Positions 864 to 19,574 of a stretch of 64,000 nucleotides of DNA are shown piece after piece. The stretch is from positions 32,001-96,000 of IMG/VR virus record IMGVR_UViG_3300047494_000112; one strand, given 5' to 3'. Under the pieces are notes generated by a model that saw only the letters and a program-made list of their open reading frames with translations, had not been told where the DNA came from and searched no databases. The position numbers and the translations under genes were made by a program. Position 1 is the stretch's first letter. Every line of letters begins with the position of its first letter. The DNA comes from a virus.

Positions 864-1499
864 TTATTTTTCTCCTAATGCTTTTAGTCTTTGTTTTGCA
901 GCAGTACTAACATCACCATCTTGATCTTTTAGTAAAGCTTTAGCATGGTTAGCATTTCCTTTTTCAGCTATTGCATGTCTTACATTCTCATCTGGATCTG
1001 AGACTAGCTTGTCTCTATGAGAGTCATTTCCATGCTCAGCTACTGTATGTCTTACATACCAATCTGGATCTTTAATTAGCTTGTCCCTATGAGAATCGTT
1101 TCCATGCTCAGCTACTGCTTCTCTTACATTCCAATCTGGATCTGAAACTAGCTTGTCTCTATGAGAATCATTTCCGTGTCTAGCTACTGCATATCTTACA
1201 TCTGGATCTTTATCTTTTACTAGCTTATTTCTATGGTAATCATTTCCATACTTAACTACAGTCTGTCTTACATTCTCATCTGGATCTGATACTAGCTTGT
1301 CTCTATGAGAGTCGTTTCCATTCCTAGCTACTGCATGTCTTACATTCCAATCTGGATCTTTAATTAGCTTGTCTCTATGGGAATCGTCTCCATTCTCAGC
1401 TACTGCATGTCTTACAGCCGAATCGGGATCTGATACTAGCTTATCTAAATGCTTAGGATGACCAATTTCAGCTAAAGCTTTTCTTTGCCAAATGTTCAA
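864..1499 (-). CDS. 24-aa HEAT/LRV-like repeat protein (N-cap + 6 internal repeats + C-cap)
   Basis: Repeats GNDSHRDKL(V/I)(S/K)DPDxxVRxAVAxx; caps QRxALAxIGHPKHLDKL and GNANHAKALLKD. Confidence 0.85.
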   Translation of the reverse strand: MNIWQRKALAEIGHPKHLDKLVSDPDSAVRHAVAENGDDSHRDKLIKDPDWNVRHAVARNGNDSHRDKLVSDPDENVRQTVVKYGNDYHRNKLVKDKDPDVRYAVARHGNDSHRDKLVSDPDWNVREAVAEHGNDSHRDKLIKDPDWYVRHTVAEHGNDSHRDKLVSDPDENVRHAIAEKGNANHAKALLKDQDGDVSTAAKQRLKALGEK

Positions 1500-2674
1500 G
1501 GCACTATTCTCTTCATTTTTAATCTACTTTGAATTTTGGGATTAGAATCATTTAGAATATGTTGCTTTGACTCTCTAGGTAGGTCTTGCCATCTATCAAT
1601 TACATCATGTCTAACAACAGGATTAGCATGATGCGCCAATTTAGGCAGGTCTTCTTTTACAGTATTATCGGTAATATGGCCTAGCGTTGAAACATGTCGT
1701 TGATGGTGTAGATTAGGTAATACATGCTCAACATCTTCGTATTTAATGGGATGATTTTTGAGCAAATTATCATCAGCTGCACCCTCAATGCGTTCCAAAG
1801 AGTTGTGCTTAAACAACTCTTTGTTGTCAGTATGGTTAAGAATGTGATCAGGTGTGCTTTGTTTATTTTCATCTGTATCATTATAGACACTAGGATTACG
1901 TTTGTAGATAACATTTGGTTTAGCTGGAAAAACGTGCTCAGCCCAATCTTTTACATTTTTATGAAATTCAGGATTGGATGTACCATAAACTTTGAGATCA
2001 GCTCTTAAGATAGTTTTATGACCTGGGTGTTCAAAAGGGCGTAAAGCAACGCGAGCTACGGGATGAGATATACTAGGATCTGTTTTATGATGCAAATAAG
2101 CAACGTGAGTACCGTTTTCAATTTCGTGATGCAAGTCTTTTTTGTAGACACCTTTGTCCATATCTAAACATGAATCCCAACCTCTATCAGTGCTCATACC
2201 TGCCACATCGTAAGGATGACGTGAAATTGTTGTATCCAAATGGCTTTTACTAGCACTACGATAAGGATCATTTATATATGCTTGTTTTATCTTAACAGGC
2301 GCTTTTTGAGCTTCTAAAATTTTTCCAATTTTTAGCGAACGTTTTTTATCTGAATCTGATAAATGATGAGCAATTCCTTGTTTGTATCTATCAGGACTTG
2401 TCTCATAGCTGGTATATCTTTCTAAATAGTCTAATACATCTTTATTAGGCTTTGAAGAAGAATGTACAATATTATTAGGCAATTTTAACCGTGTTTTATT
2501 TCCGAATACGTGATCCGAGATAGGCTTGGTAATTTCTGTGTAATGATTTTTTCTTGAAGCTGAGTCTTGAGCTGGATAAGTTTCAGGACGAATCCAAGTG
2601 CTGACTTTTTTCTTTTGCTTTGGTGTAAGGTCAGCAGTAACCTTAATCATGTTTGACATCTTGAGTGGTTGCAC
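1496..2674 (-). CDS. hypothetical protein with SRHPYDVAGMSTDRGWDSC motif and degenerate C-terminal HEAT-like repeats
   Basis: 392-aa ORF coupled to neighbours; C-term HHANPVVRHDVI/DSNPKIQ resembles the repeat unit; start probably later than annotated. Confidence 0.65.
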   Translation of the reverse strand: MQPLKMSNMIKVTADLTPKQKKKVSTWIRPETYPAQDSASRKNHYTEITKPISDHVFGNKTRLKLPNNIVHSSSKPNKDVLDYLERYTSYETSPDRYKQGIAHHLSDSDKKRSLKIGKILEAQKAPVKIKQAYINDPYRSASKSHLDTTISRHPYDVAGMSTDRGWDSCLDMDKGVYKKDLHHEIENGTHVAYLHHKTDPSISHPVARVALRPFEHPGHKTILRADLKVYGTSNPEFHKNVKDWAEHVFPAKPNVIYKRNPSVYNDTDENKQSTPDHILNHTDNKELFKHNSLERIEGAADDNLLKNHPIKYEDVEHVLPNLHHQRHVSTLGHITDNTVKEDLPKLAHHANPVVRHDVIDRWQDLPRESKQHILNDSNPKIQSRLKMKRIVP

Positions 2675-2864
2675 CTCTAGAAATTAATGCTTCAGCAGTA
2701 TTTTGATGCTTTAAAGCCAATTTTTGGTGGTGATTAAAAATTGCCTGAAATTGACTACCGTGAGGCAACAAATGATCCTTGCAAAGCTGGCATTGCTCAT
2801 GGTGATGCCTAGCATTCGAGGCGTGGTATAAAGCTAAATTTGAAATTAGTTCTTTGTTATTCAT
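2643..2864 (-). CDS. small His-rich hypothetical protein
   Basis: 73 aa, overlapping stop/start with neighbours. Confidence 0.6.
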   Translation of the reverse strand: MNNKELISNLALYHASNARHHHEQCQLCKDHLLPHGSQFQAIFNHHQKLALKHQNTAEALISRGATTQDVKHD

Positions 2865-3790: not shown

Positions 3791-4016
3791 CGGCAGTAAT
3801 CAGATATTTAATTAGAGCAACAGCCATATCGTTAAGCTGAGCTCTATCAATTTGAATGTGAGCCTGTTCTCCCTGTTTAACAACTACGCCTTCTAAATTG
3901 TGATGAGGCTTGCTACGAATTGTAACGTAAACCCCACCGTCTGGATATTTGTTAATGGAAATGTATTCAGGATAACAGCCCTGTGTAGCTGTCCAAGCAA
4001 AAATGTTCTCAATCAT
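3783..4016 (-). CDS. hypothetical protein
   Basis: 77-aa ORF overlapping both neighbours on the coding strand. Confidence 0.65.
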   Translation of the reverse strand: MIENIFAWTATQGCYPEYISINKYPDGGVYVTIRSKPHHNLEGVVVKQGEQAHIQIDRAQLNDMAVALIKYLITADD

Positions 4017-4437
4017 TACTCTTTACTCCTAATTCTTTTAGTCTATTTCTTGCAGCGTGTTTAATAGACTCATCTTTATCATTCAATAGAGCTTTTGCGT
4101 GGTCAAGGTTTCCTTTCATAGCTACAGCTCTTCGTACTTCAGGAGAATAATCATGCAATAGCTTGTCTCTGTGCGAATCGTTTCCAGTCCAAGCGACAGT
4201 TCGTCTTACGGTAAAATCTTCATCATGCAATAGCTTGTCTCTATGGAAATCATTTCCATGGATAGCGACGGCACCTTTTATATCAGGATTATCAGAATGC
4301 ACTAGCTTATCTCTATGAAAGTCGTTTCCATGCCAAGCAACTCTTAATCTTACTCCAAAATTTTTATCCTCGACTAGCTTATCTAAGTGCTTAGGATGAC
4401 CAATGGTAGCTAGAGCTATGCGTTGTTTAATGTTCAT
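4009..4437 (-). CDS. 24-aa HEAT/LRV-like repeat protein (3 internal repeats, more diverged)
   Basis: IGHPKHLDKL cap, GNDFHRDKL repeats, GNLDHAKALL C-cap. Confidence 0.85.
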   Translation of the reverse strand: MNIKQRIALATIGHPKHLDKLVEDKNFGVRLRVAWHGNDFHRDKLVHSDNPDIKGAVAIHGNDFHRDKLLHDEDFTVRRTVAWTGNDSHRDKLLHDYSPEVRRAVAMKGNLDHAKALLNDKDESIKHAARNRLKELGVKSND

Positions 4438-5390: not shown

Positions 5391-5767
5391 TCAATTGGCT
5401 CCCATTTTGATTTTTCATTTAAAACTTCAATTTTACTGGGAGGAATTTTAAAGGATTTATCTGAAAAAGCTAATCTATCAGACATTGCTCCGGATTGAGG
5501 CATGATAGATTTAACAGGCACATGATCTAATTTGAAGCGATAATGTTTGATACTTGGTTTGAACTTGCGTTTCCTGGCATCTACACTATACCAAAGCAAA
5601 TGTTGATTTGTCTTTGAAAAATCCGAAACTCGACCAGCAGGATAATTGACACTTCTTAGTCCTATCTTTTTTATAGACTCATGATTTTTAGGAGAACTGA
5701 TATGATAGCCATACTCATTATCCTCTAGTGAGGATGCTACATATCTCATCCTTTCACCTATTTTCAT
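5387..5767 (-). CDS. putative His-type ADP-ribosyltransferase-fold protein (PARP/Tpt1-like)
   Basis: GYHISSPKNHESIKKIGL matches the YHxT...sI...GL N-terminal motif; C-term IPPSKIEVL. Confidence 0.5.
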   Translation of the reverse strand: MKIGERMRYVASSLEDNEYGYHISSPKNHESIKKIGLRSVNYPAGRVSDFSKTNQHLLWYSVDARKRKFKPSIKHYRFKLDHVPVKSIMPQSGAMSDRLAFSDKSFKIPPSKIEVLNEKSKWEPIE

Positions 5768-7434: not shown

Positions 7435-7447
7435 TATAGCCTCCTAA

Positions 7448-8590: not shown

Positions 8591-9082
8591 CTATTTAACT
8601 CCTAACTCTTTTAGTCTCTGTTTTGCAGTATTTCTAACATATTTATCTTTATCTTTTAGTAAAGCTCTTGCATGGTTAGCATTTCCATTCCTAGCTACTG
8701 CATGTCTTATATATCTATCTGGATCTGAAATTAGCTTGTCTCTATGAGAATCATTTCCATTCTCAGCTACTGCTGCTCTTACAAACTCACTTGGATCTGA
8801 GACTAGCTTGTCTCTATGAGAATCGTTTCCATGCTCAGCTACTAAATATCTTACATTCTCATTTGGATCTGAAACTAGCTTATCTCTATGAGAGTCGGTT
8901 CCATGTGTAGCTACTGCATGTCTTATATTCTCATCTTTATCTTTAACTAGCTTATCTCTATGAGAGTCGTTTCCATTCCTAGCTACTGCTGCTCTTACAG
9001 ACTCACTTGGATCTGACACTAGCTTATCTAAGTGCTTAGGATGACCTATAGTAGCTAAAGCTTTGCGTTGTTTAGGTGTCAT
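8591..9082 (-). CDS. 24-aa HEAT/LRV-like repeat protein (4 internal repeats)
   Basis: Same caps and repeat consensus; 163 aa. Confidence 0.85.
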   Translation of the reverse strand: MTPKQRKALATIGHPKHLDKLVSDPSESVRAAVARNGNDSHRDKLVKDKDENIRHAVATHGTDSHRDKLVSDPNENVRYLVAEHGNDSHRDKLVSDPSEFVRAAVAENGNDSHRDKLISDPDRYIRHAVARNGNANHARALLKDKDKYVRNTAKQRLKELGVK

Positions 9083-10797
9083 GAAAGATGACCTTTGATC
9101 AAAGGTCCAAACGTCTCTTTTGTGTCTTGACCTAATCTATGGTAAAAATCATGAGCTTGCATATGTTTTCCAGCTTTAAATAAATTTGACATGTGCAAAT
9201 GCCTAGCAGCTCGTCTTAAATTAGGAGCAGCCAAGCTAGCCAAATGACCGTTAAACAAGTGGTGATGAATAAAATTATGATTTAATGCGTCTCCTGCTGT
9301 AAGTTTTGCAGAATTTGATAACTGATCATCTCTTTCATTTTGTGAATGAATTTCTCTATCTGGTTTTGGACCCATTGACAGGTGGTTACGCAGCATTTGA
9401 ACTCGATGATTATATTCGGGTGAAAAAACATCCTCAGTAGCCGTTTGTTTAGCCAATTTGGCTGCAAGGTGCCAAAATTTTGAATGTTCGGCTGTGTTTT
9501 TTAAATTAGCTGCGTGGTGTTTAATTAGGCTAGAAATTTCACGCTGGGTATTCTGATGAGGGCCAATTACTAATGCTTTGACCAGTTTTTTCTTTTTGAC
9601 GGGAGCAACCACATCTAACGGTGATTTGCCTTTGGGTATAAAAGTCGAAGCAGGTTTTTTGGTAGGGCTCTTGATCACAGATTTTAGCTTGGCTTTTTCT
9701 TTTGGATCTAGAGCTTTCTTTAGATTTTTGCTAGTCTGCGACTCTTTTACGGCAGGCTTTTTAGATTTAGTTACAGGTACAGGAGCAGGCTTGGATGTAG
9801 GTTTAACCGGTTTTTTAGGCTCTGGATCATGACGTTCCATGTCAACATATCTGATACTAGGATCTTTTGCGTCCCAAGAATGGCCTAAAACCTTGTAATG
9901 AGAGCCTCGAGGTAGTAGAAATTCTTTTTCACCAGGATGGCTACCTGCAATAGGGGGTAGGTAAGCTCCTGTATGACCTTTCTTGTGAAAAATGCGAGCT
10001 ACGGTAGTATTACCTTCATCTGAATGAGTGTCAGTTGAAAACTCGCTAGCAATATCTCTATCTAATGAAGTTCCTGTATAACCTTTGTCTTGAAACACTG
10101 TACCTTTTGGTAAAGTACGAAAACCTTCATCAACACCTCTATAGGTTACAGTATTATGCCTCAAAGAGTGGCTAGTAACTTTATCCAAAGAATTTACCTG
10201 ATCCTTGATCTCTTGATCTCGATTTTTAGCCCATTCAGCATGTGCTTTTGAGCCTCTTTTAATATTGTGCGGCGTCCACCCATTTTTTAAATCGGTTTCA
10301 ACTGTACCATTCTTTCTAAGCTGCCGATTTAACTCATTGCTGCTTTCTTGATAGTTTTCAACGTGTTCTCTATCCTTAGGAGAAAAAATTTTTGCTTTCT
10401 TTAACGCTCTATCGGTATGCTCTTGGACAATGTTTTTATGCTTTGGATCTTTTAGTGCTTCTCTATGCCAAGGAGACAAATGAGCAATGGGAGGTTGCTC
10501 AACTTTTGTTTGATACTTTTTACGATCTACTAGCCAATCAGCTTCCCAAGATTTTACCTCATGCTTACCAGGTTTTTTAATCTTGATATCTGAAATGCTC
10601 CAATGCAAATGAGACTTGCGGGGGTTTGTAGGTACTATCTCAATATCTTCTTTGGACCAGTGCATGTGCTTTTTGCGTGATTTCTTTTTCTTGCCAGCAA
10701 AAACAGGTGTAGAAGCCAACAGCTCTTGATAAACCAAATCTGTAAAGGTTTGGTCTTCAGGCAACACTTCAGCTAAAATTTTCTCAATATAGTCCAT
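9079..10797 (-). CDS. VIP2/Alt-like ADP-ribosyltransferase (R-S-E class), multidomain
   Basis: TYRG, DKGYTGTS, GEKEFLLPRG (ExE); preceding YQESSNELNRQLR helix typical of the family. Confidence 0.85.
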   Translation of the reverse strand: MDYIEKILAEVLPEDQTFTDLVYQELLASTPVFAGKKKKSRKKHMHWSKEDIEIVPTNPRKSHLHWSISDIKIKKPGKHEVKSWEADWLVDRKKYQTKVEQPPIAHLSPWHREALKDPKHKNIVQEHTDRALKKAKIFSPKDREHVENYQESSNELNRQLRKNGTVETDLKNGWTPHNIKRGSKAHAEWAKNRDQEIKDQVNSLDKVTSHSLRHNTVTYRGVDEGFRTLPKGTVFQDKGYTGTSLDRDIASEFSTDTHSDEGNTTVARIFHKKGHTGAYLPPIAGSHPGEKEFLLPRGSHYKVLGHSWDAKDPSIRYVDMERHDPEPKKPVKPTSKPAPVPVTKSKKPAVKESQTSKNLKKALDPKEKAKLKSVIKSPTKKPASTFIPKGKSPLDVVAPVKKKKLVKALVIGPHQNTQREISSLIKHHAANLKNTAEHSKFWHLAAKLAKQTATEDVFSPEYNHRVQMLRNHLSMGPKPDREIHSQNERDDQLSNSAKLTAGDALNHNFIHHHLFNGHLASLAAPNLRRAARHLHMSNLFKAGKHMQAHDFYHRLGQDTKETFGPLIKGHLS

Positions 10798-11113: not shown

Positions 11114-11932
11114 CTAATTTAACCAAGCCATGAATGGCATTTCGCTAGCTGACGCATACGCGGGAGTAGCTACGCTCGATAGTTCAAAGCCACAGATATC
11201 TAGCGTATTGTAGTATCCCAGACGACCGGTTTTTGCATCAATTTTGTAGGAAGGTTTACCGTGGGTGACATGTTCACACCCACCTTTGGACAACAATTTA
11301 GCACAAACTGAACAAGAAAAATCTGCAGCATGAGCGCCCATGCTATAACAATTTCTTTTCTTACTCAAAATATCATTCACCAGTAAAGGGTCTTTGGTTC
11401 TATCCCAAGCCACTAGCTTAATAACTTTCCAAATATTACCTGAGGTACAAGGTATAGGACGCATGATACAATCGACAATTACACCCTTTGATTGCCAAGG
11501 ATCGTCATTTTTGTGCTCAAGGTATGAAGATTTTCCTTTCCAGGTACGGTAAGCAGGCTGACCACCGTCGGTGCACCATCCAGTTAATTCGGTATAAGGA
11601 AAAGCTTGACCGTTTCTGTTAGGCAAATCTGAAGGCATGCTAATAACAGGAGTTAGTACATAGTCACGGATATTCTTGCTAATATTTAGCTTTTCAGCAG
11701 CAATGGGTAGCCAAAATTTGGCATCGTCTGTCAAATCTCGTACCGAGTCTATTAAGGATGTGTTGGCTAATACCTTTAATCCTTCTTTGTTCTTGAATAA
11801 ATTTAGATCAAAGCATTCAATGCCTCTTGGGCCAATTGCATCGCTTTGGACGAAATGCGGTCTAGTCATGATCATCACCTTCGTATGGAAGCACCTTACC
11901 ATGAACGTGCTTAACGTTACCTTTATTTTCAA
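11114..11932 (-). CDS. prohead (head maturation) protease, HK97/S78-like, with Cys cluster
   Basis: PNRNGQAF, LEH...KG, YSMG (catalytic Ser), ELSSVATPA; CSVC...CEH insert; next to portal; start probably later than annotated. Confidence 0.75.
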   Translation of the reverse strand: MKIKVTLSTFMVRCFHTKVMIMTRPHFVQSDAIGPRGIECFDLNLFKNKEGLKVLANTSLIDSVRDLTDDAKFWLPIAAEKLNISKNIRDYVLTPVISMPSDLPNRNGQAFPYTELTGWCTDGGQPAYRTWKGKSSYLEHKNDDPWQSKGVIVDCIMRPIPCTSGNIWKVIKLVAWDRTKDPLLVNDILSKKRNCYSMGAHAADFSCSVCAKLLSKGGCEHVTHGKPSYKIDAKTGRLGYYNTLDICGFELSSVATPAYASASEMPFMAWLN

Positions 11933-12437
11933 TTTTGGTAACCTGAAATCTTGTTTTGTGCGGTAGTATCATCTCTTTTTGATATTTGTACTGGTTGTTT
12001 TTATCAAAAGCGGAATCTATGTGAGGATGATTCTTAGGTACCTTTAGATGCATGTTAATGTCTAATTTATCTTGATTTAAATCTCGCTTCAATTTATCTG
12101 AGTGAAGCAATTCAGGATCTTTTGTAGTAGACATGTAACCATAATGGATATACTTGTTACCCACTTTATAGTTTGTCTTGGTGTTTGATCGAATTGCCCT
12201 ATGTGTCATGAAACCTTGATGATTAGCCGTTTTATCTAAAGCTGAATTTATTCTGTCTACATGTCTTTTTGCATATGCCTCAACATAACTACTATTCTTT
12301 TTCCCTCTAAGATAATCATTAAAGGTTGAAGCGTCACCGTGTAAATAGTTTCGGATGGATTCTCTTTCTTCAGGAGTATAAGGCAAATTTGCCTTTGCAG
12401 ATTCTACAAGCCATTGTATCTTTGCTTTAAGGCTCAT
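11862..12437 (-). CDS. VIP2/C3-like ADP-ribosyltransferase (R-S-QxE)
   Basis: YL...FNDYLRG, THRA, GYMSTT, YQKEMILP. Confidence 0.8.
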   Translation of the reverse strand: MSLKAKIQWLVESAKANLPYTPEERESIRNYLHGDASTFNDYLRGKKNSSYVEAYAKRHVDRINSALDKTANHQGFMTHRAIRSNTKTNYKVGNKYIHYGYMSTTKDPELLHSDKLKRDLNQDKLDINMHLKVPKNHPHIDSAFDKNNQYKYQKEMILPHKTRFQVTKIENKGNVKHVHGKVLPYEGDDHD

Positions 12438-12450: not shown

Positions 12451-12762
12451 TTAATAGGGAAGAGTATAATCTGTAAACTCATTAGCTATTCTATCATGAG
12501 CATGACTTCTAACATTAAGATCTGAATCGTGACTCAGTTTTTTCAAATGGTCGTAATTGCCAAATTCAGCAACTGTTTCTCTAACCAAAGGATTCTTGCT
12601 CTTGATCAGTCTATCTCTGTGTTCATCTGTACCATACTGAGCCAAGTCTACATGATATCTAGGATTCTTGAAAAACTTTTTAATGTGCTTTGGATGACCA
12701 ATTTGTATTAACGCTGGTATACTATCCCATTTGATTGCACTCTTTAGCTTTTCCTTAGCCAT
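12451..12762 (-). CDS. diverged 24-aa repeat protein
   Basis: IGHPKH cap, GTDEHRDRLIKSKNPLVR unit. Confidence 0.75.
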   Translation of the reverse strand: MAKEKLKSAIKWDSIPALIQIGHPKHIKKFFKNPRYHVDLAQYGTDEHRDRLIKSKNPLVRETVAEFGNYDHLKKLSHDSDLNVRSHAHDRIANEFTDYTLPY

Positions 12763-13768
12763 AACCTTCAGCCTTCAATTGGTCATATGAATCTTTGTAA
12801 TGAGGATCATCTCTATGAGGTTCAACTTTTGACAAAGGTATTTTGTTTTCTTTAATGTATCGGTACTGTTCATGCCAAGGATGATGAATTGCTACAATGT
12901 TTTCAGAGGGTACATCGATTTTAGAATAGGTAGGCGAATATTTGTAATGATCAGGGTCGTCGTGAAACTCTACAATTGAGCCGAATCCGTTACTATACCT
13001 TTTAGCATGAGACGCTTTGTCATGCGAATAAATACCTAATGGTCCTTCATAGCCTTTGGCATCTGATAAGCGTAATCCGTGTTTTTCAATACTAGGTATG
13101 TTTGAAGGTCTGGTAACATGAAATCTACGCATACGGCCTTCAGGTATTGGAGACTGGCCCATTTCAGGTGGTACAGGTTTAACCGAAGCTGTTACCTGAT
13201 TGTTAGGCTTTACACCGGCTAGTCTTTTCAAGCGCAATTTTGCTGCATTTGAAACTTGCTTGACAGAGTCTTGGGTTAGTTTTTCAGCATGTTCTTTGTT
13301 GGCGTTTTGCGCTACGTTTAATCTAACGCGTCTATCAGGATCTTGAAGTAATTTTTCTCTGTGAGCATCAGAACCATGACGGGCTATAAATTTTCGAACT
13401 TGATAGCTTTTATCATTGATTAGTTTATCTCTGTTAGAATCGTTACCATGCCAAGCTATATAAGATCTACCGACAGCATTAAGACATTTTTTATCTAACA
13501 GAAAATGTCTAATTTTGTCACTACCTACTTCAGCCAAATGTAAGCCTAGATTGTGTTTAGTTGCTTGACCTTGTATAGTTTTAGGTTTAAACGCTGGCAG
13601 TTGATCACTTAATTTTTCTTTAAACTCTTCATTACCATGATCTAGTAAAGCATGACCTAGTCGTTCATTATCCCAATTTGCGTCTTCAACTTGATACGAG
13701 TCTAGATGTTTATTTACATGTTTAGGGTGACCTATTTTAACTTTGGCTATTTCTTGATCCCAGTTCAT
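12755..13768 (-). CDS. 24-aa repeat protein fused to a C-terminal His-type ART-like domain
   Basis: IGHPKH cap and GNDSNRDKL repeats; C-term RRFHVTRPSNIPSIEKHGL...GIY. Confidence 0.6.
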   Translation of the reverse strand: MNWDQEIAKVKIGHPKHVNKHLDSYQVEDANWDNERLGHALLDHGNEEFKEKLSDQLPAFKPKTIQGQATKHNLGLHLAEVGSDKIRHFLLDKKCLNAVGRSYIAWHGNDSNRDKLINDKSYQVRKFIARHGSDAHREKLLQDPDRRVRLNVAQNANKEHAEKLTQDSVKQVSNAAKLRLKRLAGVKPNNQVTASVKPVPPEMGQSPIPEGRMRRFHVTRPSNIPSIEKHGLRLSDAKGYEGPLGIYSHDKASHAKRYSNGFGSIVEFHDDPDHYKYSPTYSKIDVPSENIVAIHHPWHEQYRYIKENKIPLSKVEPHRDDPHYKDSYDQLKAEGYG

Positions 13769-15708
13769 CTTTTACCTACTTCAACCAAAGTTTTTACAAC
13801 CTTGTTTGCCTTTCTTAAAGCTAGTGCTCTAGCTCTTCTATCCGCCAAGGCTTTAGCTATGGTTTTCATGGTCTTCTCTTTGATAACCTTTTGTCCTTTG
13901 GCAGAAATGTTTATCCTTTTTCCACCTTCTCCAAAAGCGCCGGTGTCAACACTTGGATCATAATCTCTATGCAGAGACATGTTTGCTCCAACACCAAATC
14001 TTGACATGCTCTTTAAAGCAGAGCCAACAAATTGTTGAGACTGATCATCGCCACCAGCCTCTTGCTGAGATTGTTGCTGCAATTGCTGCGTCATTTCATC
14101 AATTTGAGCATTGTACATTGCAATTTTTTTTCGCATTGCCAAGTCTTCTTGAAAATTTGCAACAATTTGATTGATATCTAACGAACCAGCAGCAGCAAGC
14201 ATGGCAATGGGAACAGGAATACCCATACCGTTCATATCGTTTAGCATTTGCAAGTAAGCTTGATCTCCTTCGGGCGACAAGTGTTTGTGATAAACGACCT
14301 TTGGAATTAACAGGTCATGCGTATCCATATCAACGCCAGCAATTGTTTTGTGGCGATGACGTGGGATTACATCATTGTATAAACGTCTATTAGCAATACG
14401 ATAAATGCGTTCATCATCAGTTTCAATGCGAGGTCCACTAGAGCCTGTTACCTGATATCGACGTTCTTCTCTAAAATCGTTAGCTGCTGAAATTGCGGGA
14501 AATAGCTTTTCATAAAACAAGCCAGTAGTAATTTTAGCACGAAAAGTACGAATATTATCAAGCATAACTGATAGAGAAGCATCCAAAGTTGAAAGAGAAA
14601 CTTCTCCAGTTAGTATACCCTCTGATAAGCCAAAGGCTCTATACTTGTTTGCTGAAGCATACTCGAAAACTTGATCTACGTTCCAAAACTCACCAGCAGC
14701 ACGAATTTCGTTTGTATTGACGCCTGTACGAGTGACAATTATAGCACCAGTTGGATCCAAATCTCCTTGTAGAAATAAATCACGAAAAGACTCTAAATCA
14801 GATTGAGTTGGAATCCATTCGTCATCGCCACCTACCATTACATGTAGCAAAGCTCTTTGACGTCTATTAGCCACGTCAATTGTACCGCGCATTAGAGCTT
14901 TTTCAATTAAATGAACAGGCAAAACTCTTTCATACATGCTAACGCCAAATGGTTCAGCAGTCATTGTTCTACGTGGAATATAGATAGTGTTGGCTGGCTC
15001 TAACGGAATACGTCCCTGCTTGATCTTTTCAATGAATTCTTGAGGAATATGTGACATTACTTGAGCAACACGAGGATCATTTGATTGCATGATCTTACTC
15101 AAGTCTTTAGGCATAATCAAGTCAATTATAGGATCAACGCCAAAGAGAGGAATGTTGACAATTTCAGTATTATCAATTGATTGCGGAAGAACTGCTGTAA
15201 ATACTTTTTCGTCTTGTTCAAATATTGCATTACCAATAAACGCACCTAATACCTGATAGTCTAAAGATATACCTGGTAGTAACGCACGTAAATGTAGACC
15301 TTCTAAAGATTGATGAAATTTTTCAAGGATATCTTTATCTTTAATACCTGATAAATGAAAATCAGAAAAAGGCAAATTTGCATAAACGTCAGCCGCTCCG
15401 CCACACACAGGATCATGGTAGTACATGTCACGAAATATCTTACGCTTAATACGGGGATCTTCAACAAAAATATTTTCGAGAGTAGCTCTTGAAACGTTTG
15501 AGCTGGTTTGAGTTTGCCCTATTGAGGTTCTACCTCCTTGCTGAGTTTGATCCCAAGCTTCCACGTTATGTTTTCTCAACTTGTCAGCTTGAGCTTGTAC
15601 ACCAGCCGTAATTTCTAATCGTTTTTGAGTAGCAGGCTTTAGATTAGATACTAAAGTAGGGCCTGTGTCCGTACTTGCTACAGTAAAATTACGATTTAGC
15701 TTAATCAT
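13765..15708 (-). CDS. portal protein
   Basis: 647 aa between terminase and protease; IFRDMYYHDPVCGGAADVYANLPFSDF, Y..PRR...GVS.Y recalled from portals of PaBG/Y3-type jumbo phages. Confidence 0.75.
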   Translation of the reverse strand: MIKLNRNFTVASTDTGPTLVSNLKPATQKRLEITAGVQAQADKLRKHNVEAWDQTQQGGRTSIGQTQTSSNVSRATLENIFVEDPRIKRKIFRDMYYHDPVCGGAADVYANLPFSDFHLSGIKDKDILEKFHQSLEGLHLRALLPGISLDYQVLGAFIGNAIFEQDEKVFTAVLPQSIDNTEIVNIPLFGVDPIIDLIMPKDLSKIMQSNDPRVAQVMSHIPQEFIEKIKQGRIPLEPANTIYIPRRTMTAEPFGVSMYERVLPVHLIEKALMRGTIDVANRRQRALLHVMVGGDDEWIPTQSDLESFRDLFLQGDLDPTGAIIVTRTGVNTNEIRAAGEFWNVDQVFEYASANKYRAFGLSEGILTGEVSLSTLDASLSVMLDNIRTFRAKITTGLFYEKLFPAISAANDFREERRYQVTGSSGPRIETDDERIYRIANRRLYNDVIPRHRHKTIAGVDMDTHDLLIPKVVYHKHLSPEGDQAYLQMLNDMNGMGIPVPIAMLAAAGSLDINQIVANFQEDLAMRKKIAMYNAQIDEMTQQLQQQSQQEAGGDDQSQQFVGSALKSMSRFGVGANMSLHRDYDPSVDTGAFGEGGKRINISAKGQKVIKEKTMKTIAKALADRRARALALRKANKVVKTLVEVGKR

Positions 15709-15717: not shown

Positions 15718-16143
15718 CTATTTGGCAAAGTTTAAAAACGCTTTTAGTCTATTTTTTGCACTAGACCTAACTTTGCTATCTTTATCTTTTAGTAAAGCTT
15801 TAGCATGGTTAGCATTTCCATTCCTAGCTACTGCATATCTTACATGCCAATCTGGATCTGAAACTAGCTTGTCTCTATGGTAATCGTTTCCATGCCTAGC
15901 TACTGCTTCTCTTACATACTCATCTGGATCAGAAACTAGCTTATCTCTATGAGAATCATTTCCATCAGTAGCTACTGCTTCTCTTACATGCCAATCTGGA
16001 TCTGATACTAGCCTATCTCTATGAGAGTCGTTTCCATGCTTAGCTACTGCACGTCTTACATATGCCTCTGGATCTGATATTAAAGAGTCTAAATGTTTAG
16101 GATGGCTAATTGAAGCTAAAGCTTGACGTTGGTTAGGTGTCAT
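15718..16143 (-). CDS. 24-aa HEAT/LRV-like repeat protein (3 internal repeats)
   Basis: Caps and repeat consensus. Confidence 0.85.
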   Translation of the reverse strand: MTPNQRQALASISHPKHLDSLISDPEAYVRRAVAKHGNDSHRDRLVSDPDWHVREAVATDGNDSHRDKLVSDPDEYVREAVARHGNDYHRDKLVSDPDWHVRYAVARNGNANHAKALLKDKDSKVRSSAKNRLKAFLNFAK

Positions 16144-16145
16144 TT

Positions 16146-16709
16146 TTATTTAACTCCTAATGCTTTTAGTCTTTGTTTTGCAGCAAGTCTAACTTCTTTA
16201 TCTTGATCTTTTAGTAAAGCTTTAGCATGGTTAGCATTTCCATGTGCAGCTACTGCATATCTTACATATTCCTCTGGATCCGAAACTAGCTTGTCTCTAT
16301 GGGAATCATTTCCATGCTGAGCTACTGCATATCTTACATCTGTATCTTTATCTTTTACTAGCTTATCTCTATGGGAATCATTTCCACGCTCAGCTACTGC
16401 ATATCTTACATCTGTATCTTTATCTTTTACTAGCTTATCTCTATGAGAGTCGTTTCCATGCTCAGCTACAGTCTGTCTTACATATCTATTTGGATCTTTT
16501 ACTAGCTTATCTCTGTGAGAAGGGTTTCCATGCTTAGCTACTGCTTCTCTTATAGACGAATCTTTATCTGAAATTAGCTTATCTCTGTGAGAATCGTTTC
16601 CATTCTCAGCTACTGCATATCTTACAGACGAATCTTTATCTTTAATTAGTTTATCTAAATGTTTAGGATGACCAATTTCAGCTAAAGCTTGGCGTTGGTT
16701 AGGTGTCAT
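16146..16709 (-). CDS. 24-aa HEAT/LRV-like repeat protein (5 internal repeats)
   Basis: Caps and repeat consensus; two near-identical adjacent units DKDTDVRYAVA. Confidence 0.85.
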   Translation of the reverse strand: MTPNQRQALAEIGHPKHLDKLIKDKDSSVRYAVAENGNDSHRDKLISDKDSSIREAVAKHGNPSHRDKLVKDPNRYVRQTVAEHGNDSHRDKLVKDKDTDVRYAVAERGNDSHRDKLVKDKDTDVRYAVAQHGNDSHRDKLVSDPEEYVRYAVAAHGNANHAKALLKDQDKEVRLAAKQRLKALGVK

Positions 16710-17038
16710 TTAGTGTATCCTATCGAGTGCATGTGAATCTCATGACCACCATCTGTCTTTTTAATCTGAATTGATACATCACGTTTAGGTGAAACCCAAT
16801 GCGTTCTATTGCCAGGTACTAGTGGAGACATTTCTTGACGTAAAAATTTGTGCATAGGTAAAGGCATATCATCAGCCGCATGGCGCATTACAACCTTTGT
16901 GGTTTGGATTCTTTCTTTAGACTCAGGATCAGTGATCTTGCCCATTTTTGTCATAGACATTGTGTAGCCACAGCCTTTTTTGCCAAGGCAAACTTTGCTA
17001 GCTTTTAAAATTAAAGGGTGGGCAAGTGGCTCTGACAT
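16706..17038 (-). CDS. hypothetical protein
   Basis: 110-aa ORF coupled to flanking repeat genes. Confidence 0.65.
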   Translation of the reverse strand: MSEPLAHPLILKASKVCLGKKGCGYTMSMTKMGKITDPESKERIQTTKVVMRHAADDMPLPMHKFLRQEMSPLVPGNRTHWVSPKRDVSIQIKKTDGGHEIHMHSIGYTK

Positions 17039-17529
17039 TACTGTAATCCTAAATCTTTTAGTCTTTGTTTTGCACTAGACCTAACTTCGCTATCTTTATC
17101 GTTCAGTAAAGCTCTTGCATGGTTAGCATTTCCATTCTCAGCTACTGCCCATCTTACATATGCCTCTGGATCTGATACTAGCCTATCTCTATGAGAATCG
17201 TTTCCATTCTCAGCTATCTCACGTCTCACCTTCCAATTTGGATCTGATACTAGCCTATCTCTATGAGAATCGTTTCCATTCTCAGCTACTGCACGTCTTA
17301 CATCTCGATCTTTATCTGAAACTAGCTTGTCTCTATGGGAGTCATTTCCATTCCAAGCTACTGCACGTCTCACATGCCAATCTGGATCTGATACTAGCCT
17401 ATCTCTATGAGAGTCGTTTCCATTCCATGCTACTGCTGCTCTTACATCTACCTCTGGATCTGAAACTAGCTTATCTAAATGCTTAGGATGACCAATTTCA
17501 GCTAAAGCTTGGCGTTGGTTAGGTTTCAT
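17038..17529 (-). CDS. 24-aa HEAT/LRV-like repeat protein (4 internal repeats)
   Basis: Caps and repeat consensus; 163 aa. Confidence 0.85.
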   Translation of the reverse strand: MKPNQRQALAEIGHPKHLDKLVSDPEVDVRAAVAWNGNDSHRDRLVSDPDWHVRRAVAWNGNDSHRDKLVSDKDRDVRRAVAENGNDSHRDRLVSDPNWKVRREIAENGNDSHRDRLVSDPEAYVRWAVAENGNANHARALLNDKDSEVRSSAKQRLKDLGLQ

Positions 17530-17760
17530 TTAATCTTCTTTAACAGGGATACAGGTTCTAGCTCCTAGATCAACCCACATGCTAAATTCCTTGCCCTGGA
17601 AAGAACCTTTAACGAGCTGCATAGGTTGTTTTGATGCTGACGAAAGAGGAGGTTTTTCTGTAGCAGCCACCAATGAACTAATAACCTCAACCTTTGCTTT
17701 AATTACTTTTTTGTCGGCTTCAGGATTACAAAACAATGGGTCAATTAATTCTCTAGTCAT
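17530..17760 (-). CDS. hypothetical protein
   Basis: 76-aa ORF abutting repeat genes. Confidence 0.6.
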   Translation of the reverse strand: MTRELIDPLFCNPEADKKVIKAKVEVISSLVAATEKPPLSSASKQPMQLVKGSFQGKEFSMWVDLGARTCIPVKED

Positions 17761-18179
17761 TACTGTGCTCCTAAATCTTTTAGTCTATTTTTTGCAATAG
17801 ACCTAACATATTTATCTTCATCTTTTAGTAAAGCTCTTGCATGGTTAGCGTTTCCATTCCAAGCTACTGCTTGTCTTACATCTGAATCTGAATCTGAAAT
17901 TAGCTTGTCTCTATGAGAGTCATTTCCATGCTGAGCTACTGTATATCTTACACCTACATGTGGATCTGAAATTAGTTTGTCTCTATGAGAATCGTTTCCA
18001 TGCTCAGCTACTGCATATCTTACACCTACATGTGGATCTGAAATTAGCTTGTCTCTATGGGAATCATTTCCATGCTGAGCTACTGTATATCTCACATGCC
18101 AATCTGGATCTGAAACTAGCTTATCTAAATGCTTAGGATGGCCAATTTTAGCTAAAGCTATGCGTTGGTTAGGTGTCAT
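17760..18179 (-). CDS. 24-aa HEAT/LRV-like repeat protein (3 internal repeats)
   Basis: Caps and repeat consensus; 139 aa. Confidence 0.85.
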   Translation of the reverse strand: MTPNQRIALAKIGHPKHLDKLVSDPDWHVRYTVAQHGNDSHRDKLISDPHVGVRYAVAEHGNDSHRDKLISDPHVGVRYTVAQHGNDSHRDKLISDSDSDVRQAVAWNGNANHARALLKDEDKYVRSIAKNRLKDLGAQ

Positions 18180-18181: not shown

Positions 18182-18601
18182 TTATTTTTCTCTTAACTCT
18201 TTTAGTCTTTGTTTTGCAATAGACCTAACATCATCATCTTCATCTTTTAGTAAAGCTTTAGCATGGTTAGCGTTTCCATTCCATGCTACTGCTTCTCTTA
18301 CATTCTCATCTGGATCTTTAATTAGCTTGTCTCTATGAGAGTCGTTTCCATTCCTAGCTACTGCATGTCTTACATTCCAATCTGGATCTGAAATTAATTT
18401 ATCTCTATGGGAATCGTTTCCATTCCTAGCTACTGAACGTCTTACATATCTATTTGGATCTGATATTAGCTTATCTCTGTGAGAATCGTTTCCATTCTCA
18501 GCTACTGCTGCTCTTACATATTCCTCTGGATCTTTTACTAGCTTGTCTAAATGCTTAGGATGACCAATTAAAGCTAAAACTATGCGTTGGTTAGGTGTCA
18601 T
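18182..18601 (-). CDS. 24-aa HEAT/LRV-like repeat protein (3 internal repeats)
   Basis: Caps and repeat consensus; 139 aa. Confidence 0.85.
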   Translation of the reverse strand: MTPNQRIVLALIGHPKHLDKLVKDPEEYVRAAVAENGNDSHRDKLISDPNRYVRRSVARNGNDSHRDKLISDPDWNVRHAVARNGNDSHRDKLIKDPDENVREAVAWNGNANHAKALLKDEDDDVRSIAKQRLKELREK

Positions 18602-18942
18602 GACGTACCTTGCAATTTCTGTGCTGCATACTTTTTGACGGTGTCATTAGGATCTTTTGTTAGCATTGAAGCTAAATTACGATCAGCATTTTTAGCTACA
18701 GCAATACGAACAATAGCTTCAGGGTCATGCACAAGCATTGATACAAATTTAATTACTCCAGTCATGGCCACAGCTTTTCTAACCAAAGGATCTGGATCTT
18801 TAACATACTTTAAAAGAGCAGTAGGGTTACCTGACCGTATTTCGGTATACTTTTGATGGTGTACTTTACGCAAAGATGCACCAGATTTGTTGTCTGGTGC
18901 TTGTTGCTGTAGTGCAGGAATGTTTGCAAAATCAGAGCTCAT
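18598..18942 (-). CDS. diverged HEAT-like repeat protein
   Basis: KDPDPLVRKAVA, HDPEAIVRIAVA, KDPNDTVK units with different caps. Confidence 0.75.
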   Translation of the reverse strand: MSSDFANIPALQQQAPDNKSGASLRKVHHQKYTEIRSGNPTALLKYVKDPDPLVRKAVAMTGVIKFVSMLVHDPEAIVRIAVAKNADRNLASMLTKDPNDTVKKYAAQKLQGTS

Positions 18943-19574
18943 GACTCACCTAACTCTTTTAATCTATGTCTTGCAATAGGCCTAACATTATCATCTTTAT
19001 CGTTCAGTAAAGCTCTTGCATGGTTAGCGTTTCCATCCCAAGCTACTGCTGCTCTTACAAACTCACTTGGATCTGAGATTAGCTTGTCTCTATGAGAGTC
19101 GTTTCCATTCTCAGCTATCACACGTCTTACATTCGGATTTGGATCTGAAATTAATTTATCTCTATGGGAGTCGTTTCCATGCTCAGCTACTGCATATCTT
19201 ACATTCCATTTTGGATCTTTAATTAGCTTATTTCTATGGTAATCGTTTCCATGCTTAGCTACTACATATCTTACTCCTGCATTTGAATCTGATACTAGCT
19301 TATCCTTGTGAGAGTCATTTCCATGCTGAGCTACTGCTTCCCTTACATTCCAGTGTGTATCTGAAACTAGCTTATCTCTATGAGAATCGTTTCCATTTAT
19401 AGCTACTGCACGTCTTACATACCAATCTGGATCTGAAACTAGCTTATCCTTATGGGAATCGTTTCCACTTATAGCTACTGCATGTCTTATATACACATTT
19501 GGATCTGAAACTAGCTTGTCTAAATGTTTAGGATGACCAATTTTAGCTAGAGTTAAGCGTTGTTTAGTATTCAT
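18939..19574 (-). CDS. 24-aa HEAT/LRV-like repeat protein (6 internal repeats)
   Basis: Caps and repeat consensus; 211 aa. Confidence 0.85.
   Translation of the reverse strand: MNTKQRLTLAKIGHPKHLDKLVSDPNVYIRHAVAISGNDSHKDKLVSDPDWYVRRAVAINGNDSHRDKLVSDTHWNVREAVAQHGNDSHKDKLVSDSNAGVRYVVAKHGNDYHRNKLIKDPKWNVRYAVAEHGNDSHRDKLISDPNPNVRRVIAENGNDSHRDKLISDPSEFVRAAVAWDGNANHARALLNDKDDNVRPIARHRLKELGES

Follow-up and report, generated by a model that had tools for sequence, protein, structure and literature searches.

A multigene family of small capped LRV-repeat solenoids, most likely a repertoire of protein-binding modules, in the head and baseplate operons of an uncultured phage

The 187-kb contig of an uncultured phage carries about 20 small genes built on one shared, rigid 24-residue helical-repeat scaffold; their differences lie mainly on a single exposed face of one helix. 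In the window, the 64,000-nucleotide stretch analyzed here, the family comprises nine canonical genes (N-cap, n units of 24 aa, and C-cap) and three diverged or fused ones (table 1). The nine ORFs, all on the minus strand, are intact and lie where the original prediction had placed them. With the additional copies at contig positions 8174, 10365, 11916, 177781, 178452, 180691, and 183403, the canonical set of the whole contig reaches 16 genes with 102 units, all perfectly in register: a 12-aa leader, 24-aa units, and a 7-aa tail account for each gene, with no gaps. Fifteen of the 16 copies retain an intact frame and both caps; one copy is frameshifted. The proteins are basic (pI 8.6-9.7 in 13/16). 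Because the 81%-complete contig was assembled from a metagenome, near-identical units may in part have been put together in the wrong order. The family itself is real, since it is found in the genome of an isolate, Vibrio phage vB_VmeM-32. We found no published description of this phage LRV family in the literature. Phrog_20647 (matched by gene 864-1499 at 1e-68) and the GenBank "HEAT repeat protein" VmeM32_00052 of vB_VmeM-32 belong to the same protein family and are bare database entries of "unknown" function; the vB_VmeM-32 paper is silent on its HEAT repeat genes (PMC6483233).

Table 1. LRV-family genes and neighboring context genes in the window
Feature	Position	Strand	Description
Canonical LRV gene	864..1499	-	211 aa: N-cap unit, 6 internal units, C-cap
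Diverged LRV gene, counted among the nine canonical	4009..4437	-	142 aa; ATGA overlap with SprT-like gene 4434-5390
Canonical LRV gene	8591..9082	-	163 aa; ATGA overlap with 572-aa ADP-ribosyltransferase gene 9079-10797
ADP-ribosyltransferase (context)	9079..10797	-	572 aa; ADPrib_exo_Tox 2e-14; Lys/Pro-rich linker, helical C-terminal part
Prohead maturation protease (context)	11114..11932	-	phrog_18299 3e-64; 50% identity to GR7B
ADP-ribosyltransferase (context)	11862..12437	-	191 aa; between portal and protease; ADPrib_exo_Tox 2e-17
Short diverged LRV-like gene	12451..12762	-	103 aa; IGHPKH N-cap and 2-3 units kept
Fusion gene	12755..13768	-	337 aa; diverged LRV array N-terminal; phrog_20647 6e-18
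Portal protein (context)	13765..15708	-	33-37% identity to annotated portals of large phages; 75.5% to L024
Canonical LRV gene	15718..16143	-	141 aa; C-terminal tail altered; immediately upstream of portal gene
Canonical LRV gene	16146..16709	-	187 aa; copy used for structure model
Canonical LRV gene	17038..17529	-	163 aa
Canonical LRV gene	17760..18179	-	139 aa
Canonical LRV gene	18182..18601	-	139 aa
Diverged HEAT-like gene	18598..18942	-	114 aa; Pfam HEAT 2.7e-9
Canonical LRV gene	18939..19574	-	211 aa
Putative large terminase subunit (context)	20133..22310	-	37% identity, E 1e-128, to vB_VcorM_GR7B gene

As judged from sequence matches and a structural model, the family consists of LRV repeats, with the unit register G1-N-D-S-H-R-D-K-L-V-S-D-P-D-x-x-V-R-x-A-V-A-x-x24. 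The matches of gene 864-1499 to Pfam HEAT (2e-22) and LRV (9e-16) exceed the curated cut-offs. In the AlphaFold2 model of the copy 16146-16709 (pLDDT 97.3, pTM 0.89), helices of 7 and 10 residues alternate, corresponding to D-S-H-R-D-K-L and x-x-V-R-x-A-V-A-x-x in each unit. The top Foldseek match is 1lrv, the Azotobacter vinelandii LRV protein (Pfam PF01816; TM 0.83, rmsd 2.6), with alphaRep binders next (TM 0.72-0.77), and the structural neighbors comprise protein binders of the LRV, alphaRep, armadillo, and PP2A-A types. By sequence, too, 1LRV matches best (E 1.1e-10, seven repeats aligned without gaps in the same 24-residue register), and it shares the alternation of long and short helices and the solenoid shape. 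The LRV/HEAT-like alpha-solenoid with a 24-aa period proposed originally is thus borne out. However, 1LRV is a single bacterial protein of unknown function with an N-terminal Fe-S domain, whereas the phage proteins lack this domain, are small and capped, number 16-20 paralogs per phage genome, and combine near-identical scaffolds with a hypervariable face.

Entropy along the unit peaks at positions 15 (2.96 bits), 16 (2.93), 19 (2.67), and 23 (2.60), the four that the original prediction had singled out. Positions 24 (2.12 bits), 14 (1.95), and 13 (1.49) are also variable, and scaffold positions do not exceed 0.55 bits. With the modeled helix boundaries, a single arc of 100 degrees on the long helix holds all four peaks, opposite V17, A20, V21, and position 24. 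The four correspond in the alignment to positions 18, 19 and 22 (and 23) of alphaRep, whose randomized positions 18, 19, 22, 23, and 26 form the concave face contacting the target (PMC3754942); the predicted correspondence with the randomized alphaRep face therefore stands. Like the phage proteins, alphaRep and its parent thermostable HEAT-like (PBS-HEAT) family are capped alpha-solenoids with a constant scaffold and a variable number of repeats (PMC3754942). In both, the variable positions flank a conserved V-R (x-x-V-R-x-x) on the binding-face helix, and small residues are favored one position after the first post-VR residue. Unlike alphaRep, a man-made library of 31-residue units, the phage set is a natural multigene family of 24-residue units, presumed to bind. 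The alphaRep library was itself modeled on natural frequencies (PMC3754942), and HEAT-like repeats in general vary at exactly these positions, which counts against reading the phage family as binders.

We nevertheless favor, with moderate confidence, a lineage-specific expansion of small capped LRV alpha-solenoids whose most likely role is that of a repertoire of protein-binding modules, best read as accessory and rapidly turning over. The units stack as a rigid rod with a dedicated cap at either end; V17, A20, V21, and position 24 make up the hydrophobic side of the long helix, which packs into the core. As positions 15, 16, 19, and 23 differ in almost every unit, each paralog has its own long composite surface. 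This surface may bind proteins, as the same face does in the engineered alphaRep binders, and its targets would be diverse, most probably host factors (takeover or counter-defense) and possibly also the phage's own effector enzymes. The fusion of one member with an enzyme-like domain, as if the binder were used as a module, counts for this reading: the C-terminal ~155 aa of the fusion gene form a widespread uncharacterized domain with an H...Y...E pattern, which is probably ART-like. The LRV set resembles a natural binding-protein repertoire wired into virion operons. The ankyrin-repeat families of poxvirus and giant-virus host-range proteins and of Wolbachia phage WO are multicopy and fast-turning-over, and are thought to engage host proteins. 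Like the LRV set, they are small solenoid binders carried by a virus; they differ in fold, have no translationally coupled cassettes in structural operons, and their scaffolds are less homogenized at the DNA level.

The LRV copies lie inside head and baseplate operons and run in the same direction as the operon genes. Their starts overlap the upstream stop codon as ATGA (gene 864-1499 starts with TTG, its overlap with the stop of ORF 1496-2674 being 4 nt), and GGAG-bearing codons of the C-cap provide the Shine-Dalgarno sequence of the next gene. Promoter and terminator searches inside the array found no excess and no internal terminators. With such a start and such an end, each copy is a self-contained cassette, therefore insertable in essential late operons (terminase-portal-protease and baseplate hub-gp25-gp6-gp7), where it could be made with the virion proteins. 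The predicted co-expression with portal and protease agrees with this organization: the LRV genes are translationally coupled to terminase, portal, and protease and probably co-transcribed with them. The gene order suggests late co-expression with virion proteins, and LRV proteins might be packaged into the particle. Six copies lie between terminase and portal. For gene 20133-22310, a Pfam search gave no match; its assignment as a large terminase comes from position, size, and a Walker-type GQRSGKS motif, and its GR7B match lies just upstream of the portal gene with one small ORF between. The description of the array as interleaved with head genes holds for portal, prohead protease, and large terminase; the remaining interleaved genes encode ADP-ribosyltransferases, a SET-domain protein, a SprT-like protease, and HTH proteins. 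Outside the window, LRV copies occupy the baseplate operon. G001, an unrelated 150-kb phage with 15 genes and 84 units of the same subfamily, also has baseplate insertions, as well as four consecutive copies.

One could see in this wiring a set of cognate adaptors or chaperones, each LRV protein binding through its variable face the product of its coupled gene, be it an ART, the SprT-like protease, or a baseplate or head protein. The partner would be loaded into the virion, or an enzyme held inactive, and diversity would reflect different phage partners, not host targets. We consider this rather unlikely, although most dispersed copies do come after a larger gene and overlap it by 4 nt: ART572 and LRV163, the SprT-like gene and LRV142, ORF392 and LRV211, and, in the baseplate operon, hub and LRV212, gp25-like and LRV163, gp6-like and LRV187. 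The fusion to a probable ART-like domain, a physical link and the one hint at the ART chaperones offered as an option originally, also fits, and each of the three phages carrying the family has two ADPrib_exo_Tox genes. Such co-occurrence is weak evidence because ARTs are common in large phages, and the tandem runs between terminase and portal and in G001 lack one-to-one partners. Moreover, the relative L024 keeps ART, SET, and SprT genes without most of the LRV copies and has no LRV gene after its ART309.

Identical arrays in related phages, which would have spoken against the original prediction, are not what the comparison with L024 shows. The core head genes of L024 are 72-78% identical to those of the phage studied here (portal, 76%), but L024 has three family genes against ten in the same interval, only ~50-59% identical to those here, in keeping with an accessory family that turns over quickly. 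In the window, gene 12451-12762, for which a Pfam search gave no match, lies directly upstream of ART gene 11862-12437. One of the L024 genes, of 121 aa (L024 6593-6958), is likewise located between ART and protease, and its best matches in the window are canonical copies; another, of 115 aa, is the positional counterpart of 16146-16709. Gene 18598-18942 is an older member, as it is kept in L024 at 57% identity.

This copy-number change, the frameshifted copy, and the coupling signals that each cassette brings along would also suit a neutral or selfish expansion, in which cheap insertion between coupled genes is tolerated, the scaffold is kept folded and harmless, and the surface drifts freely. 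Scaffold codons are nearly fixed (GGA 70/71, GAT 70/70, CCA 48/48, GTA 64/66) against a genome-wide use of just 25-32% (GAT 68%); codon bias is insufficient to explain this. The unrelated G001 shows the same pattern with other frozen codons (GGT, AAA, GTC, CGT, GTT), so the family was homogenized or recently expanded separately in each genome. Hypervariable codons have fixed third bases and vary at the first and second. A per-site comparison, suggested with the original prediction, gave a dN of 0.78 at these codons versus 0.03 in the scaffold; in both phages the former amounts to ~13 times the dS of the scaffold codons lying between them. Scaffold helix 1 has a dN/dS of 0.03-0.04, and the proteins are therefore under purifying selection. 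In the phage studied here, hypervariable dN only equals the dS of helix-1 wobble sites (0.76), so that omega is at least 1 and not proven to exceed 1, and unconstrained exposed residues could yield part of the variability. Free drift is nonetheless unlikely. In G001, hypervariable dN exceeds all of the dS references, by factors of 2.3-13. The variable positions strongly favor Trp, Tyr, His, Arg, Asn, and Glu (Trp in 22/71 units at position 15), unlike what codon degeneracy predicts; all but one of the canonical copies are intact; and the expansions occurred independently in at least three unrelated phages.

On the reading that we favor, the family expanded through duplication of genes and units and through transfer of units between copies, rapid amino-acid change being limited to the variable face. 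Stretches of DNA that match exactly over 116, 82, and 67 nt connect distant genes at different array positions, whereas the longest match has a median of 32.5 nt; the 116-nt stretch is common to gene 17760-18179 and the copy at contig position 11916. Transfer between paralogs, predicted as recombination shuffling, is thereby supported, and each recurring variable cassette listed originally was recovered. Identical pairs over positions 13-16 and 19 number 11, compared with 1.8 in column shuffles (p = 0.0005), and cassette sharing is above chance in G001 as well. Cap sequences from the same genome location are no closer to one another than to the rest (mean distance 0.145 inside clusters, 0.150 between them), in line with recent expansion or concerted evolution.

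A role as virion structural or assembly parts (head decoration, internal, or baseplate accessory proteins), with variation tolerated because the residues face the solvent, seems very unlikely. Copies do lie inside head and baseplate operons of two very distantly related phages (the gp6 proteins of this phage and G001 are only 22% identical), and internal terminators are lacking. Yet L024, with such similar head proteins, has few copies. The terminase-portal gap, 4.4 kb here, is 0.3 kb in Vibrio phage GR7B, with no LRV gene in it, and a tblastn search of the phage collection retrieved the family from vB_VmeM-32 alone. This T4-like phage has 5-6 genes of the same subfamily (49-55% identity) outside such operons, where their neighbors are nucleotide-metabolism genes and small genes without a known function; they stand alone between terminators, one as a monocistronic unit. 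The inconsistent contexts, late structural operons in this phage and G001 versus stand-alone genes in vB_VmeM-32, count against the binder repertoire too.

Xanthomonas TAL effectors have near-identical DNA repeats with few variable residues, a variable repeat number, many paralogs, and repeat recombination, and the variable LRV residues are spaced i, i+1, i+4, a pattern reminiscent of the PUF code. The phage proteins share these TAL features, which, together with their basic pI and sub-threshold Pfam PUF matches (E 0.008), would fit modular TALE-, PUF-, or PPR-like readers of one nucleic-acid base per unit through positions 15, 16, and 19, with conserved basic residues tracking the backbone. 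This is highly improbable, contrary to the code offered as an option originally: TAL effectors have 34-aa repeats and a small di-residue alphabet reading DNA bases, whereas here nearly every unit is unique (61/71 five-position cassettes; 68/84 eight-position cassettes in G001), 30 residue pairs occur at positions 15-16, three to six internal units would specify very short sites, PUF and TALE are absent among the Foldseek matches listed, which are protein binders, and nothing indicates nucleic-acid binding. DGR and DNA-mimic readings are likewise disfavored. The same subfamily also occurs in a T4-like metagenomic fragment and, in other elements, as giants of 800-1,400 aa.

The window covers bases 32001–96000 of a single contig that is 187,324 bp long, classed as linear in IMG/VR and approximately 81% complete. 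The nine ORFs of common architecture named by the original prediction, 139–211 aa long and located on the minus strand between 864 and 19574, were found exactly at the places claimed, together with three diverged or fused relatives. By scanning the whole contig, we identified seven extra canonical copies beyond the window, three at 8–12.5 kb and four at 177.8–183.8 kb, for a total of 16 canonical genes. These genes encode a 12-aa leader (M-T-P-N-Q-R-Q-A-L-A-x-I), an N-cap unit opening with G-H-P-K-H-L-D-K-L, three to six internal 24-aa units, a C-cap unit opening with G-N-A-N-H-A-K-A-L-L-K-D, and a 7-aa tail (L-K-x-L-G-x-K). The 102 units (71 internal, 16 N-cap, and 15 C-cap) share a gapless 24-aa register, G-N-D-S-H-R-D-K-L-V-S-D-P-D-x-x-V-R-x-A-V-A-x-x, numbered here from its glycine. 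One of the distal copies is frameshifted within G-N-D-S-H-R-D-K-L and reaches a normal C-cap in another frame; a pseudogene, a repeat assembly error, or a programmed shift could explain it. In addition, the C-terminal end of the 392-aa ORF upstream of the LRV gene 864-1499 contains one or two HEAT-like units (A-N-P-V-V-R-H-D-V... and D-S-N-P-K-I-Q-S-R-L), the ORF otherwise lacking a family match.

Coordinates of LRV-family genes and neighboring features (window positions unless another sequence is named)
Feature	Coordinates	Remark
LRV gene	864-1499	
ORF with HEAT-like end	1496-2674	392 aa
Effector-type block	2861-12437	around and downstream of prohead protease gene
Double-HTH protein	2861-3790	
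Family gene	4009-4437	HEAT the only Pfam match
SprT-like metalloprotease	4434-5390	
ORF	5387-5767	same N-terminal motif as fusion C-terminal domain
SET-domain methyltransferase	5764-6129	
ART572	9079-10797	572 aa; Lys/Pro-rich linker
ART	11862-12437	191 aa
Family gene	12451-12762	no match in Pfam search
Fusion gene	12755-13768	diverged LRV array + C-terminal domain
Fusion C-terminal domain	12755-13225	~155 aa
Family gene modeled with AlphaFold2	16146-16709	
Family gene	18598-18942	HEAT the only Pfam match
Family gene	18939-19574	HEAT the only Pfam match
Interval compared with relative contig L024	15708-20133	L024 1000-4100
Frameshifted copy	contig 183403-183900	L017 (locus of this contig) 10403-10900
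Tandem paralogs in T4-like metagenomic fragment	L019 7723-12947	six

The family genes match the Pfam profiles for HEAT (best E-value 2e-22) and LRV (9e-16 at best), both above the curated cut-offs. LRV (PF01816) scores 57.5 bits in gene 864-1499, against a cut-off of 21.6, and 23–35 bits in six more members. In PHROGs, the family corresponds to phrog_20647 (1e-68), of unknown function. An AlphaFold2 model of one member, built on an alignment of the nine paralogs, reached a mean pLDDT of 97.3 and a pTM of 0.89. The modeled unit consists of a 7-residue helix (positions 3–9) followed by a 10-residue helix (positions 15–24), with no beta strands. The top Foldseek match in the PDB is 1LRV (query-normalized TM 0.83, rmsd 2.6 Å, 27% identity), followed by the engineered alphaRep binders 4zv6, 6bzx, and 4xl5 (TM 0.72–0.77), and by sequence the proteins align with 1LRV in a shared 24-residue register, with no gap across seven repeats (E 1.1e-10). 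Taken together, the profile matches, the predicted structure, and this alignment make membership of the LRV repeats well supported. Conversely, the unit does not correspond to the 31-residue PBS-HEAT/alphaRep repeat despite a close resemblance, being of 24 residues: HMMER opens gaps of four and three residues, seven in all, per unit. Unlike the Azotobacter vinelandii LRV protein, which carries an N-terminal 4Fe-4S domain (an accessory outside the repeat definition), the phage proteins gave no LRV_FeS match and no member has a Cys cluster.

Variation among the 71 internal units is concentrated at positions 15, 16, 19, and 23 (entropies of 2.96, 2.93, 2.67, and 2.60 bits). Positions 24, 14, and 13 follow (2.12, 1.95, and 1.49 bits), then positions 10, 11, and 20 (about 1.1 bits); all remaining positions are at or below 0.55 bits. 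On the 10-residue helix, the four most variable positions fall inside a 100-degree arc, opposite a hydrophobic arc formed by V17, A20, V21, and position 24; we infer their exposure from the helix boundaries and the helical periodicity. HMMER aligns the phage segment x15-x16-V-R-x19-x20 with 18-19-V-R-22-23 of alphaRep. The variable alphaRep positions are 18, 19, 22, 23, 26, and 30, they make up the concave face touching targets in crystal structures, and position 23 prefers small side chains (PMC3754942). Position 20, its counterpart here, is Ala in 58 of the 71 units. The likeness to the randomized alphaRep binding face put forward from the sequence therefore holds. The residues found at the variable sites, with Trp at position 15 in 31% of units and Tyr, His, Asn, Arg, and Glu elsewhere, form a spectrum far from that expected under free drift.

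The scaffold codons are nearly fixed, including at their synonymous sites: GGA (70/71 in the repeats, 25% genome-wide), CTA (66/71, 19%), GAT at position 12 (70/70, 68%), CCA (48/48, 32%), GTA at position 17 (64/66, 31%), and AGA at position 18 (67/69, 32%). Codon bias does not explain this freezing, because genome-wide usage is far lower, 19–33% against 92–100% in the repeats for most of these codons. At the hypervariable codons, bases 1 and 2 vary freely and base 3 is mostly fixed (T in 67 of 71 at codon 16).

A profile search of IMG/VR identified the family in a second phage, IMGVR_UViG_3300050132_000084 (hereafter G001), a complete genome of 150,145 bp with terminal repeats and no match to our portal protein. 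It encodes 15 genes and 84 units of G-N-D-S-H-R-D-K-L-V-N-D-S-D-x-x-V-R-x-x-V-A-x-H, hypervariable at positions 14–16, 19, 20, and 23. Its caps differ from those of this phage and it freezes a different codon set (GGT, AAA, GTC, CGT, and GTT).

Class-level Nei–Gojobori estimates gave a dN at hypervariable codons of 0.78 in this phage and 0.72 in G001. The dS of the interleaved scaffold codons is 0.058 and 0.055, and that of helix-1 wobble sites 0.76 and 0.29, respectively; the scaffold dN of this phage is 0.03. In this phage, the hypervariable omega is thus ~13 relative to neighboring synonymous sites and ~1 relative to helix-1 wobble sites, and we therefore limit our claim to an omega of at least 1, short of formal proof of positive selection. 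In G001, hypervariable dN lies above every synonymous reference. The scaffold is under strong purifying selection (dN/dS 0.03–0.04). Synonymous diversity is very uneven across the 72-nt unit (dS 0.76 vs 0.06). Across all 71 internal units, the wobble sites of codons 2, 3, 4, 5, and 7 show C and T at ~60:40 near linkage equilibrium, and the T-ending codons of the second unit half (12, 14, 16, 22, and 24) are 93–100% fixed. Two ancestral unit haplotypes do not account for this polymorphism, as 19 haplotypes occur over the five C/T sites, all lying within 16 nt, and |r| is ≤0.34. One idea is that long stretches of perfect repetition are selected against in the half whose amino acids do not vary.

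Five-position cassettes recur identically in 11 cases, where 1.8 would be expected (p = 0.0005). At the DNA level, perfect matches of 116, 82, and 67 nt link different array positions in genes up to 38 kb apart, the median longest exact match between genes being 32.5 nt. Distances between the non-repeat caps are independent of genomic location (0.145 within clusters vs 0.150 between them). These data indicate that units have been transferred between copies, together with a genome-wide homogenization or a recent burst, and they bear out the recombination-shuffled family proposed initially. Similarly, the 84 cassettes of G001 include 68 distinct ones and 18 identical pairs against 0.2 by chance, and two of its genes have three cassettes in common in the same order. 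A DGR target is unlikely, because no reverse transcriptase (RVT_1) match was found in the ~81%-complete contig, control genomes giving matches; moreover, the variation pattern is not adenine-specific.

Most copies begin with an ATGA start that shares bases with the stop codon of the gene before it, and most end in G-E-K or G-V-K codons (GGAGAAAAA or GGAGTTAAA, then stop), which put a GGAG a few bases ahead of the next start codon. Along the minus strand of the window, the terminase gene is followed by a 198-aa ORF, six canonical copies interspersed with one diverged copy and a 110-aa ORF, and the portal gene; then come the LRV-fusion gene, an LRV-like gene, an ART (ADP-ribosyltransferase) gene, the protease gene, a 104-aa ORF, ART572, and an LRV gene. 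This LRV stretch has fewer sigma-70-like promoters than expected by chance and a chance-level number of terminator-like sites. The baseplate operon, beyond the window, has the order hub, LRV, gp5-like, gp25-like, LRV, gp6-like, LRV, and gp7-like tail protein, all with 4-nt overlaps. In G001, copies lie on both sides of the gp6-like gene and ahead of a wedge gene; the gp6 proteins of the two phages are only 22% identical.

The Vibrio phage vB_VcorM_GR7B (terminase 37% and protease 50% identical to those of this phage) has in common the order terminase, small ORF, portal, two ORFs, protease, but 0.3 kb separates its terminase and portal genes, compared with 4.4 kb in this phage. A portal-based search of IMG/VR gave no relatives, whereas a metagenome scan identified a closer one, the 13.7-kb contig Ga0302325_10020866 (L024), with terminase, portal, and protease identities of 72%, 75.5%, and 77.6%. 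Its SET, SprT-like, and ART genes are collinear with ours. As the original prediction anticipated, the arrays are not identical across related phages: L024 carries three LRV-family genes in this interval (a diverged HEAT, a 115-aa LRV, and a 121-aa LRV-like gene), about 50–59% identical to ours, against ten in this phage. Its terminase–portal slot also contains several unrelated small genes. On this comparison, the expansion is specific to this lineage, family members change more quickly than the core genes, and the terminase–portal interval is a hyperplastic slot. In L024, a lipase-like 207-aa gene with a G-H-S-L-G-G motif and unrelated small ORFs stand in place of the LRV copies.

The fusion gene joins a diverged LRV array to a C-terminal domain that is not in Pfam and has 270 homologs (E <1e-3) among 1.84 billion representatives. 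Many of these lie within giant, polyvalent-type multidomain proteins of 1,000–3,000 aa, one of which also has ART-PolyVal. Among 25 homologs, His36 (R-F-H-V-T), Glu86 (I-V-E-F), His114, Trp117, and His118 are invariant, as is the H-x-x-W-H motif, and the consensus retains the Tyr of G-I-Y-S. Profile matches to Pfam PARP (E 0.025), DarT (E 0.24), and PARP3 (E 1.2) are all below threshold, as are the Atlas neighbors Tox-ART-HYD1 and PARP (0.91), but they agree in direction; single-sequence AlphaFold2 of the fusion protein gave a pLDDT of 38.8. The domain is probably an ART-like enzyme of the H-Y-E class. At the least, the fusion shows an LRV array put to use by evolution as a module joined to an enzyme-like domain. 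Two clear ADPrib_exo_Tox genes lie near the fusion gene, and each of three family-bearing phages has two such genes. These two ARTs, one with a Lys/Pro-rich linker, belong to a dense block of putative effector-type genes, which also includes SET-domain methyltransferase, SprT-like metalloprotease, and double-HTH genes; the ART, SET, and SprT-like genes are kept in L024. The block looks like a group of proteins for ejection or host takeover. A MoxR-VWA association of the LRV genes was rejected, as no AAA_3 match to a MoxR-type AAA+ ATPase was obtained in the contig, control genomes giving matches.

The best-supported reading is that these proteins are accessory, lineage-specifically expanded LRV solenoids with one diversified face, expressed from late virion operons, for which we propose a binding role. 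A first guess is that their targets are host factors, for takeover or counter-defense. The main rival is that they bind cognate phage partners, as would be consistent with the tight coupling to upstream genes and the LRV-enzyme-like fusion. Structural roles are less likely, the turnover of the copies weighing against an essential one. A nucleic-acid code is also less likely: the TALE/PPR-like code suggested earlier would use a small recurrent alphabet with one unit for each base, but positions 15–16 display 30 residue pairs among 71 units, and most cassettes are unique (61 of 71 five-position cassettes in this phage, 68 of 84 eight-position cassettes in G001), which also argues against PUF; PUF and TALE structures are absent among the structural matches listed. 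Neutral cassette spread is likewise less likely, given the residue spectrum at the variable sites; were it right, the family would still neatly illustrate concerted evolution within a multigene family of a virus. By pI, most of the proteins are basic, an observation that bears indirectly on nucleic-acid binding and argues against acidic DNA mimics.

A bolder version of the host-directed reading, which we consider rather unlikely, is that the LRV paralogs constitute a combinatorial counter-defense repertoire produced together with the virion and perhaps packaged in it. The proteins would then be in place when the next infection begins. Through its unique face, each rod would inhibit a separate immune sensor or effector of the host; alternatively, the rods would redirect the co-encoded ARTs to new substrates. 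Terminase and portal are sensed by bacterial Avs-type receptors, and by their position the copies between the two genes could shield these triggers. The plug-in cassette design would allow quick enlargement of the repertoire, an idea that the increase from three to ten copies relative to the nearest known relative fits. T4-type internal head proteins and Alt have a capsid-targeting sequence that the prohead protease cleaves, in T4 at L/I-x-E; in the LRV family the leader Q-R-x-A-L-A-x-I is conserved, but the would-be cleavage residue is Glu in only five of 16 copies under this T4 rule, which may not be that of this phage.

If the binding role is true, large phages naturally carry binder libraries that can expand rapidly and consist of small, very stable alpha-solenoids. 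In phages, they would parallel the host-range ankyrin families that poxviruses and giant viruses have, with the LRV fold, of unknown function since 1996, as their basis, and would form a new class of candidate anti-defense or host-takeover proteins with ~70 distinct binding surfaces in each of two genomes. For binder engineering, the family would also supply a naturally occurring 24-residue scaffold and a natural map of change-tolerant positions. It would likewise be a clear case of accessory genes entering phage operons that are essential and translationally coupled while leaving them intact.

Homologs of nearly full length are rare, 28 among 5.8 billion proteins at E <1e-5, with identity never above 57%. 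We found no description of this family in the literature searched for phage LRV/HEAT expansions, including a comparative overview of jumbo phages (PMC7824862) and the paper on the cultured T4-like Vibrio phage vB_VmeM-32 (PMC6483233). The latter phage encodes five or six members, in which a ~70-aa N-terminal domain replaces the short cap; one, annotated as "HEAT repeat protein", is isolated between predicted terminators. A T4-like metagenomic fragment (L019) encodes six tandem, more diverged paralogs with the G001 N-cap F-L-A-x-Y-G-T-P-x-H. Two of them use a second repeat of ~24 aa, H-N-N-P-E-I-H-K-E-I-L-K-H-P-K-T-D..., instead of the LRV unit. Giant forms, proteins of 800–1,400 aa containing blocks built to the same 24-aa plan, were identified in elements of 60–120 kb, whose large neighboring genes mostly encode LRV proteins too. 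The arrays of two such metagenomic contigs, L022 (120 kb) and L023 (60 kb), are a large-protein version of the same expansion theme: several adjacent LRV-repeat proteins of 520–1,390 aa are encoded there beside Toprim/DUF3991 and PBECR4 genes.
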